Part shown: in pieces, positions 52,588 through 60,681 of the stretch
How the letters are laid out: every line of letters starts with the position of its first letter
Numbering within the stretch: position 1 is the stretch's first letter
Source of the DNA: Eledone cirrhosa
Taxonomy: Eukaryota
Reading direction: 5' to 3'
Length of the DNA: 64,000 nt
Assembly (NCBI GenBank): GCA_964016885.1
Contig: OZ024762.1
Location: 18,848,001 to 18,912,000, forward strand
Translations under genes and position numbers: made by a program
The notes under the pieces: generated by a model
The model's input: only the letters and a program-made list of their open reading frames with translations
What the model was told of the DNA's origin: nothing
Databases searched by the model: none

Positions 52588-52592
<5 letters not shown>

Positions 52593-52981
52593 AAAGTTAA
52601 ACAAGGTTCAATGAATAAATCACAGAATGAGTTTTACAATAGATTGGAAGCACTCTACAGTGATGGTTTTCTAGAGTTATTAATATTAATTCAAAATATT
52701 AACAAAATAGATATTCTTGTGATCAAAAGTATATTTTATTATACATATTTCAGAGGTAATGAGTTAACTTCAATAGTACGTCCTCATCAGATAAAATAAG
52801 ATGATGCATGACATACCCTGACATAATCTTAACCATCTACTATGTCAGGGTATGTCATGCATCATCTTATTTTATCTGATGAGGACGTACTGTTGAAGTT
52901 AACTCAGTACCTTTGAAATATGTATAATAAAATATACTTGATCACAAGAATATCTATTTTGTTAATATTTTGAATTAATAT
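52588..52981. mobile_element. Fold-back palindromic element with hammerheads on both strands (plus 52868-52934)
   Basis: Arms 52683-52825 and 52841-52981; TATTTTAT-CTGATGA-stem II-GAAA-TATGTA-TA-ATAAAATA. Confidence 0.88.
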
Positions 52982-53043
52982 ATATATATATATATACAAT
53001 GATATTATTAAATAAATGGAAACTATATTTATAAAACCATATT

Positions 53044-53108
53044 TATTTTATTATATATATTTCAAGGGCAACCAAGACAACATTGGTGCGCTTTCATCAG
53101 ATAAAATA
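53044..53108 (-). ncRNA. Hammerhead of the 60.3-kb subfamily
   Basis: Minus strand reads TATTTTAT-CTGATGA-AAGCGCACCA..TGGTTGCCCTT-GAAA-TATATA-TA-ATAAAATA. Confidence 0.75.
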
Positions 53109-53678
53109 CAAAGTTTGTTTTATATATATCATTATTTAATATCATTGAATATTTACTCCAGTAACTTGTTGAGTGCTCTAAATCAGTTATAAACATTTGT
53201 TTGTCGGACTTCCAACAAATTAAATACAACTTCTACTTATATATATATCAAAGGTATATTTTGAGTTAGAAACTCAAAATAGTTTCTTACAATTAAATAG
53301 CCCAAAGAAAGAGGTTTTTCCGAGCCGTATATTATAATTGAATATAAAAGAGAGATAAACACAGATTTATACATATATGTGTTCAAATCGTAAGGGACCA
53401 GATTCGCTAAGGTGAAAAAATACTAACTATTAACAATAGGGTTTGCCAGACTCAATTTAAAACAATAAATCAAGAAAAGAAATACAAACCTATATTGGGC
53501 AACTGCCAGCACACCCAGACAGTTTATGGTAGGCTGTTTCTCAATTTTAGCGAAGGGAATTACCAATTTTTTGCTCATTAGTGGGTATAAAATTAGTAAT
53601 CTCTTCACTTCTAAGTATCTCAGAAGACTGAATAGTGTGCGAATATAAAATAACGCACATGGCATATATATATATATA

Positions 53679-54470
53679 AAGCGCCGAAACATCAATGATC
53701 GCAGTTAACAGCTGATGAAGGTATTCTTCTGTTGTTTACGTCCATATTACTATCTTACACTTTATTTACAGTAAACACACAGCCCGCTACGTTTCTTGTA
53801 ATTTCGTATTTACCGCTGTGACACCCCTCTACTTGTTTTGCTCGATTTGTGATCCCACCACGCTTTCTTATCGACTCTCTCGTTCTCTCTCTCTACCCTT
53901 TTTAACTCTCTCGTTCTCTCCCTATCTCTCTCTCGTTCTCTCTCCCTCTCGTTCTCTCTCGTTCTCTCTCTCTCTCACTCTCTCTATCCATCTTCTCATT
54001 TTCGACCATATTTCACACATGTCGTAAAACGCTTTTGGATTATCTCCCTTTCCCTTCTCCATCTCACTTCGGGTTTCTCCATCTCTCTCTCTCTCTCTCT
54101 ACGTTCACCCTGCTAAGATCGCACGGAACAACCTCGCTCAGCAGTTATATTGCCCATAGGACTTATGTCGAATCGGTTCGTTGTAACTTGTTCTATTTTC
54201 TCCTCTGTTACTCACTTACATGTGCCATTTTCCTGTGTCCCCCCTCCATTCAGTTAGTTTACTTCGTTTTTTGCTCTGTCTTCCTCTCTCTTCACTATTT
54301 TTTCTTTTCGTTTCTTCATGGCCTGCTGATCGATTTCGATGTCCTGTTGTAAGCGTCGAAATATCGATGAACGCAGTTAACAGCTGATGAAGGGTTTCTT
54401 CTCTTGTTTACGTCAATATTACCAACTTTGTTGACAGTAACCACACAGCGATCTACGTTTCTTGCAATGT
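53679..54470 (+). mobile_element. ~1.2-mer of a ~672-bp unit with terminal direct repeats, flanked by (TA)n
   Basis: 53679-53805 is homologous to 54351-54470. Confidence 0.75.
54323..54395 (+). ncRNA. Candidate non-circularly permuted hammerhead (second family)
   Basis: TCGATG-TC-CTGTTG ... GAAA-TATCGA ... TAACAG-CTGATGA-AGGG; GUC triplet. Confidence 0.65.
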
Positions 54471-54765
54471 TATATATATATATATATATAAGAGAGTGTT
54501 GAAGTGTGCTTGAAGCATTGTGGAATAATAAAAAAAGAAAAAACTCGGAAATCCTCCAGTTGATGGATACAAAATCCGAAATATAGGGACAATTAAATCA
54601 CTTCCAAAGTAACTCTATCTCTTACTACTATTTTTTATACTTTTCCTACGTTCCTTTACACCCTCTACGTCTCTTTCTACGCTATCTCTTACATCTCTCT
54701 CTCATTACCACCTGATTCTGTTACCTGGAGATTTTCCCATCTGCATTGTTGAGGCTTCCAAAACG

Positions 54766-54828: not shown

Positions 54829-55211
54829 TATTCGGCAATATACTGTATGTTTATTTAAAAACATTTTGAAGACCATTCGCTATGAGTTTTAAAGTAGTGG
54901 CTACGTCACTTATTTGGTCTTGACGAAAGCAAAGAGAAGCAACCGACTGCCGTTTCTTGCTCATTAACGGTTGTCAAGGTTACATATCCCTTCGCTTCTG
55001 TCGAGATTTATAGAAGCTGTATTCTTATAGAATTCAGTGATGTTTAAGAGCTAATTAAACAGAGGTTGCCGGTCCAGCAAAAATTAGGAACTAGTATCGG
55101 TGCTCTGAAATAGCGATGTATGTATGAATGTATTATATAGTATATTTGATAATATATTGTGTTTAATTTAAAACATTTTAAAGAGCATTCGCTCAGAATT
55201 TTAAAGTAGTG
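54826..55211 (-). mobile_element. Decayed dispersed ~1.25-mer of the 310-bp retrozyme family
   Basis: Minus strand has ATCGCTATTTCAGAGCA..GGACCGGCAACC; direct repeat at ~312-bp spacing; stem I GTAACC/GGTTGC retained, core mutated. Confidence 0.8.
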
Positions 55212-55233
55212 ATTATATTTTACCGATAAAATA

Positions 55234-57871: not shown

Positions 57872-58072
57872 GTATTTATCGACACCGTAAGGGGGTATTT
57901 ATATCGAAGCCGTAGAAGAGGTGGTAAAGGAGGCGAGAAGTATGAGTAATGGCAGCTTTCCAGCAGTCACCACACTTCAAAGATTACTCGACCAGAGGGA
58001 GTTATGAACAATATATTTAGAAACACACAGATACATGCGGACACACACATATACATGAATGCATATATATAT

Positions 58073-58278
58073 AACGAAGGAAATGTTGTAAGGAACCAGA
58101 TGGACCATAACGCACCAAAGTACTAAATACTTAGCGTAGTAGAGTGGGTAATGGGAACGAGTAGGACCCCGACGGCTGAGCTCAAGCCGTTTCGACGGCT
58201 AATTCTGGACTAAAAGGATTTTAGTCCAGAATTAGCCGTCGAAACGGCTTGAGCTCACCCGTCGGGGTCCTACTCGTT

Positions 58279-60315: not shown

Positions 60316-60681
60316 AATATATTAACAAATGGAAACTATATTTATAAAACCATATTTATTTCGTTATACATATTTCAAGGGCCACCAAGGCAGATTATGG
60401 TGCGCTTTCATCAGATAAAATATAATACAGATTAGTTTTATAAATAAATATTGACATACCCTGAAAAAATGCAACCTTAACGGTTGGAGCTAAACTATTC
60501 AGCAAGCTCCAGCCGTTAAGGTTGCATTTTTTTCAGGGTATGTCAATATTTATTTATAAAACTAATCTGTATTATATTTTATCTGATGAAAGCGCACCAT
60601 AATCTGCCTTGGTGGCCCTTGAAATATGTATAACGAAATAAATATGGTTTTATAAATATAGTTTCCATTTGTTAATATATT
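60316..60681. mobile_element. Near-perfect 366-bp palindrome with hammerheads on both strands (minus 60357-60422, plus 60575-60640)
   Basis: ~176-bp arms with a 13-nt loop at 60492-60504; CTGATGA 60583-60589, GAAA 60621-60624. Confidence 0.9.

Follow-up and report, generated by a model that had tools for sequence, protein, structure and literature searches.

The canonical hammerhead ribozymes of types I, II and III carry their conserved blocks, CUGAUGA (C), GAAA (G) and the cut site (S), in the cyclic order C-G-S. Non-circular arrangements were described by Eckert et al. (2023, PMC10085705), whose type-SGC RNAs (HRIMA-1 and variants) possess the full catalytic core in the order S-G-C, with stems I and II linked by 2-4 nt and a fourth helix (their helix 'I', helix O here) joining the far ends; RNAs of type SGC built on the same stems undergo cleavage in vitro. 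According to that article, no such motif came from the genomes of known organisms except one bacterial candidate of type GCS, and a connection between the far end of stem III and the stem I-stem II helix was hard to reconcile with the crystal structure. The S-G-C order, the full core, the short link and the fourth helix all recur in the relatives of an insertion that lies within a stretch of 64,000 nucleotides of Eledone cirrhosa DNA (GenBank assembly GCA_964016885.1, contig OZ024762.1, positions 18,848,001 to 18,912,000, forward strand; hereafter the window), itself part of a 3.0-Gb assembly. With a probability of roughly 0.7, this insertion is a 5'-truncated, non-coding, Penelope-like tandem copy whose intact relatives carry a self-cleaving, non-circular hammerhead opened within its core, the copy in the window being probably inactive. 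Unlike the type-SGC RNAs of PMC10085705, which were not found in the genomes of known organisms, the motif is present in more than 11,000 copies in an animal genome; its stem II partner is predicted to lie upstream, block C to be split at A9/10.1, helix O to be tied to both strands of stem III with a kink-turn or bulge, and two helices, IV and V, to be added.

The abundance of the motif was determined by pattern searches of the whole genome. A pattern of the G block with the C block behind it gave 5,857 + 5,719 = 11,576 matches against 1 + 1 for the reversed control, a 15-nt exact pattern for the family of the insertion (family B) gave 568 + 498 = 1,066 against 1 + 1, and a pattern for a second family, found in the window at 9.4 and 51.8 kb (family A), gave 9,568. 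The scrambled-hammerhead motif is real and is not a chance occurrence, and the proposal of the initial annotation that one scrambled hammerhead is common to two families whose stems differ was borne out. Among 191 distinct copies anchored on the G and C blocks only, the S block could be placed through stem III in 161. Stem I, which was not used for that placement, formed five of five pairs in 129 of these copies and at least four in 148; each of its positions shows two or three pair types, and position 17 was A in 74, C in 66, U in 19 and G in 2. The core elements CUGANGA, GAAA and UH (H not G) were all present, the CUGA and GAAA blocks having served as search anchors, and stems I and III flank the cut site with their pairing kept across families. 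A descriptor made of the core, stem I and stem III detected 136 S-G-C motifs in 1.45 Mb of loci fetched from the genome (numbered with the prefix L), which were chosen for the motif and are enriched by design, compared with 0-2 in each of five shuffles. The order S-G-C departs from that of canonical types I, II and III, and intact copies of families A and B matched no Rfam hammerhead family up to an E value of 10; a scan of the whole window against Rfam was dominated by microsatellites, with no hammerhead among the matches listed (150 of 640). Single-sequence folding, a method that leaves pseudoknots out, gave z-scores of -0.3 to -2.7.

The strand preceding GAAA forms four Watson-Crick pairs with a strand further upstream in 93 of the 136 descriptor hits, a partner that would be expected by chance in about 1 in 10 by our own estimate, and helix IV is present in 104. 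Stem II beside GAAA is formed with this upstream strand in intact copies (GGCGC/GCGCC in family B, UCGC/GCGA in family A) and is absent from the window copy. Intact examples are L103:1402-1520 for family B and L031:1439-1547 for family A. The predicted strand order is helix IV, hairpin V, stem II strand, outer helix and stem III/cut/stem I, followed by the second strands as stem II/GAAA/stem III, outer helix, stem I/CUGAUGA and helix IV. On this predicted wiring the opening of the chain falls between A9 and 10.1, within a block treated as unbreakable by Eckert et al., and the two extra helices, IV and V, close the opened chain. It is very unlikely that the element is instead a plain published type-SGC hammerhead, with a short stem II made by the strand right after CUGAUGA, in which case the window copy could still cut. 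The two bases before GAAA in family B can pair with the GG beyond an inserted A, an inserted base in the 9-10.1 link being usual in the hammerheads of Penelope-like elements (PLEs; PMC4209133), and across both families the first such pair is possible in 155 of the 161 copies and the second in 81, with four further tail pairs possible across a bulge in the main family B subfamily. Beyond these first one or two pairs the pairing with the strand after the core is poor, four consecutive pairs occurring in 1 of the 136 hits and at most three of five in family A; the tail covaries instead with an upstream strand, and in Naiad elements the tails pair upstream over up to 8-10 bp. A stem II formed with the tail was also considered for our own model and was dropped once the Naiad consensus sequences showed the upstream partner.

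The six-helix wiring was assessed in alignment rows picked for diversity from 74 full copies of family A and 67 of family B. In family A (31 distinct rows) the six helices are 95% paired, compared with 26-48% in slid controls, and 11 pairs changed on both sides, a number reached in 0 of 500 shuffles; in family B (46 rows) pairing reaches 89%, and both-side changes occupy 31 cells where shuffles give 12.4, the number of pairs with a both-side change lying within the shuffles (30 of 500). These shuffle figures overstate certainty because of the kinship of the rows, from which the structure had itself been derived, a first point against the six-helix interpretation, the others being gathered below. 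Helix IV switches from C-G (45) to U-A (12) among the 67 family B copies, and for stem II it is the change between families and phyla that argues for the proposed pairing. Of the 59 family A internal loops of the outer helix that were listed (the top 15 loop types among 74 copies), 56 have one strand reading NGA opposite three variable bases followed by GA; both G-A steps of the kink-turn consensus are kept in these 56, with a variable 3-nt bulge, as in the standard kink-turn, where a 3-nt bulge precedes G-A and A-G pairs (PMC5061560). The consensus is not matched in family B, which has a 3-nt bulge or an asymmetric loop at this place. Divergent family A subfamilies with novel outer-helix sequences were seen at four loci (L148, L149, L325 and L033), two of which (L148 and L325) have a U after the core, as in the Naiads of Octopus.

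Modelled on these helices, outer helix O would fold back beside stems II and III at the kink, and by our estimate of helix lengths the fold-back closes in families A and B and in the Octopus Naiads and does not close in those of Acropora. That the motif is inactive as a monomer, and works only when two units of a tandem transcript form a strand-swapped dimer or when a protein is bound, was judged improbable. The tandem occurrence of the elements (nine family A units at L150) would suit a dimer, which minimal PLE hammerheads require (PMC4209133), the Acropora geometry is difficult to close as a monomer, and the Poseidon hammerhead cut only with its protein present (PMC11167929). Stem III here has at least 5 bp and is not palindromic, so that no second unit is needed to build it; furthermore, the helix lengths of families A and B and the Octopus Naiads suit a monomer folding back at the internal loop, again by our estimate, and the Naiad consensus sequences contain one motif per 3-4 kb.

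Naiads (Craig et al., 2021, PMC8557442) resemble the present families in their (TA)n targets and in their tandem and inverted, 5'-truncated insertions, and differ in that the element studied here encodes no protein. Eight Naiad consensus sequences, representing four phyla, were seen by eye to have the same rewired motif, with unrelated stems, close to their 3' ends; these 8 were read among the 54 records of File S5 and do not amount to a census. Stem II is GACACC/GGUGUC in two Octopus records, GGCCCC/GGGGCC in Naiad_Plae, GGGGA/UCCCC in the record preceding it (Naiad-2_Movir by list order), GGCUCC/GGAGCC in three Acropora records and GGCCCA/UGGGCC in Naiad_Bfor. In all 8 the tail pairs farther upstream (helix IV, 3-10 bp) with hairpin V between, and G10.1-C11.1 is kept in 8 of 8, also by eye; the two Octopus records share the internal loop of family A, with its kink-turn consensus. 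Craig et al. report no canonical hammerhead in Naiads, and 3 of these 8 are flagged there as HHR_core or HHR_half_core. The motif is not universal in Naiads, because those of nematodes keep the usual order of CUGA before GAAA. Other layouts read by eye in the same supplement include a long-insert S-G-C form and a G-S-C layout, each seemingly present, and a seemingly S-C-G arrangement in the Euprymna record (Naiad_Esco). On balance, with odds a little better than even, Naiads and their non-coding satellites may carry a fourth, active wiring of the hammerhead, folded by a kink-turn and old, its cutting possibly controlled by a host protein of the L7Ae family, and possibly captured here by Neptune-type machinery; this wiring would be a non-circular permutation opened in the core, extending from ctenophores to cephalopods, and would explain the 'missing' Naiad hammerhead.

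The copy in the window (Table 1) retains the letters on which the initial annotation was based: TCGATG (54336-41), TC (54342-43), CTGTTG (54344-49), the linker (54350-57), GAAA-TATCGA (54358-67) and TAACAG-CTGATGA-AGG (54378-93) are all in place, as is the outer stem of CTGC (54323-26) with GCAG (54373-76). The upstream repeat, which includes GAAA-CATC, begins at a point equivalent to 7 nt 3' of the cut predicted between 54343 and 54344. The stem II partner had been left unnamed, and a loss of 29 nt between 54322 and 54323 had gone unnoticed; compared with an intact copy (L103), positions -50 to -22 from the cut are absent. The upstream repeat (53679-53802), which is 82% identical to 54351-54468 at a spacing of 672 nt, contains neither a cut site nor a stem II partner. 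The window copy is therefore probably dead, since the deletion took the stem II partner and the upstream repeat is also without it: judged from its sequence, one strand has been lost. A GCS-type arrangement with the upstream repeat in cis was rejected, that repeat offering no stem II partner. The region 54320-54400, alone or with the upstream repeat, had been put forward for a cleavage assay; the conserved stem II partner is in neither, and as a result of its deletion the construct is unsuitable and would probably fail. The G block of most family copies reads GCGCC + CATC, whereas that of the window copy reads GCGTC + TATC, and two C-to-T changes in this copy favour an off-register hairpin, TTCGATG/CGTCGAA, which is its predicted minimum-energy fold. 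This hairpin, raised earlier as a possible sole conserved fold, is not the conserved one, because the C-to-T change that it needs is rare in the family.

Table 1. Positions of the elements and of their predicted parts (window coordinates unless a locus is given).
Feature	Position	Strand	Remarks
Family B insertion, non-autonomous Penelope-like	53679..54471	+	single 672-nt unit plus ~120 nt, (TA)n tract each side
5'-truncated upstream repeat	53679..53802	+	GAAA 53686-89, C-block core 53712-18, tail
Helix IV, 5' strand	54313..54316	+	predicted partner is the tail after the core
29-nt deletion site	54322..54323	+	most of hairpin V and stem II 5' strand (GGCGC in intact copies) gone
Outer helix O, 5' strand	54323..54331	+	
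S block	54338..54348	+	stem III 5' strand GATG, U16.1-C17, stem I strand CTGTT
G block	54353..54365	+	stem II strand GCGTC, GAAA 54358-61, stem III strand TATC
Outer helix O, 3' strand	54368..54376	+	
C block	54379..54394	+	stem I strand AACAG, core CTGATGA 54384-90, tail AGGG as helix IV 3' strand
3' tail	54395..54471	+	stops at usual family end point, abuts (TA)n
Family A copy, all six helices	9359..9467	+	same design as family B, stems different
Family A copy, second subfamily, all six helices	51739..51847	+	
Head-to-head joints, family A / Neptune-type	L048:1616-1619; L268:4316-4323		L270 duplicates L268

The family B unit is non-coding, pyrimidine-rich and about 600-750 nt long, with no relevant open reading frame (ORF). 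At least 26 of the 30 best-matching loci, a ranking by query match that favours copies reaching the unit end and in which L004 and L024 are one place, end at unit position 138-163 and are followed by simple repeats, mostly (TA)n; the 5' ends of these 30 are scattered and often inverted, and some copies traverse two or more motifs. Partial tandems, a fixed 3' end, variable or inverted 5' ends and a microsatellite target together form a Penelope-like insertion signature, which fits published descriptions of partial tandems, inverted 5'-truncated copies and (TA)n targets (PMC8557442) and of reverse transcription beginning inside the RNA at AT-rich targets (PMC11167929). The carrier had been assigned to Penelope-like or retrozyme-like elements, and this assignment stands. 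Animal non-LTR retrozymes (Cervera and de la Pena, 2020, PMC7229834; 10.64898/2026.07.22.740005) are likewise Penelope-derived, non-coding tandem units with one hammerhead each. Unlike families A and B, they are defined by type I hammerheads (PMC7229834), so that a type I descriptor would miss the present elements, and the retrozyme search of Li et al. (2026 preprint, 10.64898/2026.07.22.740005) employed type I models only. A classic retrozyme, to judge from its sequence, is present at window positions 1-2223 as a tandem array of a 310-bp unit, more than 99% identical, with a type I core in each (7 cores); diverged relatives lie at 54834-55216 and 39218-39562, and other canonical type I families occur as palindromic (inverted) insertions at 47182-47495, 52590-53128 and 60320-60677.

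The minimal PLE hammerheads of type I (Cervera and de la Pena, 2014, PMC4209133), represented here by a further family (family C) and by the Neptune-type elements, have the same core as families A and B, and family C also has AGGA after the core and AGCG before GAAA in common with them. Unlike these, the hammerheads of PMC4209133 show the canonical order, a hairpin stem II and a palindromic stem III that needs a dimer. Family C, with 4,298 pattern matches in the genome, was observed at window positions 12935-13071 and 50326-50459 as a minimal type I hammerhead at the 3' end of a Neptune-type element (L308), and the resemblance of its stem-loop II letters to two separated pieces of families A and B is a possible clue to origin or recombination. 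The pseudoknot (PK) hammerhead (Zhan et al., 2024, PMC11300833) also forms helix II by a pseudoknot and not by a hairpin; it differs in its pistol-like connectivity, and its helix IV is a stem of the pseudoknot loop and is not at A9/10.1. An additional abundant (TA)n repeat (family D; window 9160-9317, 12193-12361 and 58067-58268) often forms inverted pairs whose meeting point lies directly 5' of a GUC-GAAAC hairpin, with no full CUGANGA seen, and is possibly a degenerate or a different ribozyme. Tandem chimeras without a TA spacer join family B to a family-C-like element (L114:2075-2095) and a family A variant to family D (L033:1577-1597).

Which protein moves the elements was addressed by searching the genome for an autonomous partner. 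A full-length element with reverse transcriptase (RT) and GIY-YIG domains carrying the motif had been anticipated; none was found in this genome, such elements being seen, by eye, only among the published Naiad consensus sequences. No ORF with an N-terminal GIY-YIG and a C-terminal RT, as in Naiads, is attached to family A or B copies. Forty GIY-YIG loci contained C-terminal-endonuclease ORFs of Neptune type or Penelope type, with the motif near three of them: in one it is a separate insertion behind (TA)n, in two it lies upstream of the ORF. The Naiad RT motif gave no exact match in the genome and 14 at two mismatches compared with 3 for the control, and the 153 Naiad protein matches were nearly all short or broken; Naiads in this genome are decayed remnants only, which by eye resemble Naiad_Ovul. 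The motif was in none of 14 + 12 Naiad-match loci inspected, a genome search with the Octopus-type motif pattern gave no match, and a protein search with a Naiad remnant as query found nothing. Two independent family A copies are joined 5'-to-5' to Neptune-type elements without a TA spacer, and 16 of 20 loci of the Neptune-type family so joined contain a minimal hammerhead of the canonical kind. The two joints, thin evidence in themselves, suggest that two different RNAs were primed at one break and hint that Neptune-type proteins moved family A. Neptune-type frames open over 844-1096 codons, stop to stop and partly microsatellite, were observed at L171, L172 and L173, and the clade may therefore be recently active.

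If the motif cuts, the 5' junctions of the copies would be expected to reflect it, and a pile-up of junctions just 3' of GUC was part of the initial proposal. Junctions were sampled for each family from the first 100 contig-1 matches of patterns 3' of the cut; the family B counts exclude two unrelated loci (L128 and L144), L270 was set aside as a duplicate of L268, and TA microhomology shifts apparent ends by a few bases. Among 96 family B copies, 14 5' ends fell at +13 to +36, 2 at -17 to -3 and 9 at -60 to -18, and 10 of 82 ends were at -2 to +12 where 2.7 were expected from the upstream rate (P 5e-4). For family A (92 copies) the corresponding figure was 8 of 88 against 1.3 expected (P 7e-5), the comparison with the downstream rate (P 0.003) being too strong as around four downstream ends were mislabelled as deletions. 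Of 29 motifs followed by unit body, as in the window, 11 stop between -6 and +40 by eye, where the rate in the unit body predicts about 3. The cut is where both arms of an inverted pair at L264 begin, and arms in L231, L125 and L141 begin there too; ends at +7, like that of the window copy, recur at six loci (L066, L068, L109, L237, L295 and L297). Internal deletions spanning the cut (5 of 13, two of 15 rows having been dropped as mis-calls) are too few to use. The predicted excess is thus there in part: ends are about 3 to 6 times commoner immediately 3' of the cut than on its 5' side, but most copies read through the cut and family B does not exceed its downstream rate. The window junction is therefore compatible with a template 5' end made by the ribozyme and is no proof of one. 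The data fit a mixture of cut templates with circular or uncut ones, circular RNAs having been shown for type I retrozymes (PMC7229834).

Several further points weigh against an active, core-opened hammerhead. The cut was read through in 72 of 96 family B and 80 of 92 family A copies, the family B ends at -2 to +12 were not above the +13 to +36 rate (7.5 expected, P 0.22), and RT stalling at a stable structure could raise the 5'-end rate too. Stem II is almost without both-side change inside family A or B, positions 10.1-11.1 are a C-U or U-U mismatch in most family A copies (U-A in L033 and L149), the Beroe Naiad has a stem I of only 2 bp, and the 12-bp stem III of the Acropora Naiads seems, by estimate, too long for a monomer with a 9-bp outer helix. 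Five RNA runs were listed, each with 4-5% of words, and the assembled RNA contigs of four runs yielded a single CT-rich piece and nothing of the motif, an uninformative result that was counted on this side, and the lizard Poseidon hammerhead was dispensable for insertion in vitro (PMC11167929). Some of these observations would suit a hammerhead-derived, non-cutting fold kept as a recognition or priming signal for a Penelope-like protein, with the 5'-end excess due to RT stalling: three quarters or more of the copies read through, the excess reaches +36, the distance between motif and priming sites is 20-130 nt and family A is mismatched at 10.1-11.1. Such a fold has a small probability in our judgement, as CUGAYGA, GAAA, U16.1-A15.1 and an H17 other than G are kept in Naiads from ctenophores to cephalopods while every stem changes, and several inverted joints begin at -1 to +2, where an RT moving 3' to 5' has already unwound the helices.

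Taken as a self-cleaving motif, a predicted ribozyme by its sequence, the intact copies would probably act as follows. At its internal loop, which follows the kink-turn consensus in family A and in the Naiads of Octopus and is a bulge or an asymmetric loop in family B, the outer helix would fold back; this would bring together the ends of stems I, II and O and assemble the usual hammerhead core. Tandem transcripts would be cut once per unit, and some of the pieces would be ligated into circles while others would stay uncut. Copying of the RNA into (TA)n would fall to a Penelope-like RT/GIY-YIG protein provided in trans. It would start internally, some 120-140 nt 3' of the cut, which in the window copy would be at the end of the 3' tail. 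The read-through majority would then stem from circles or uncut RNA, and the smaller share of 5' ends, those at 0 to +12, from cut linear RNA.

The literature consulted, mostly non-subscription, yielded neither a description of a non-circular hammerhead from an animal genome nor one of an opening at A9/10.1. Non-circular hammerheads have so far been known from anonymous metatranscriptome and metagenome contigs, plus one doubtful bacterial case, and the S-G-C order is now seen in a chromosomal retroelement. The core-opened design would be a variant of the hammerhead, probably active in intact copies, of which the window holds a damaged one. The kink-turn could return the outer helix to stems I and II and so provide an answer to the geometry puzzle of type SGC. 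The finding also bears on open points of Penelope biology, namely whether Naiads are without a hammerhead and what role PLE hammerheads play. Standard descriptors miss the motif because the published six-permutation scheme excludes its wiring, and ribozyme counts in animal genomes would be underestimates.
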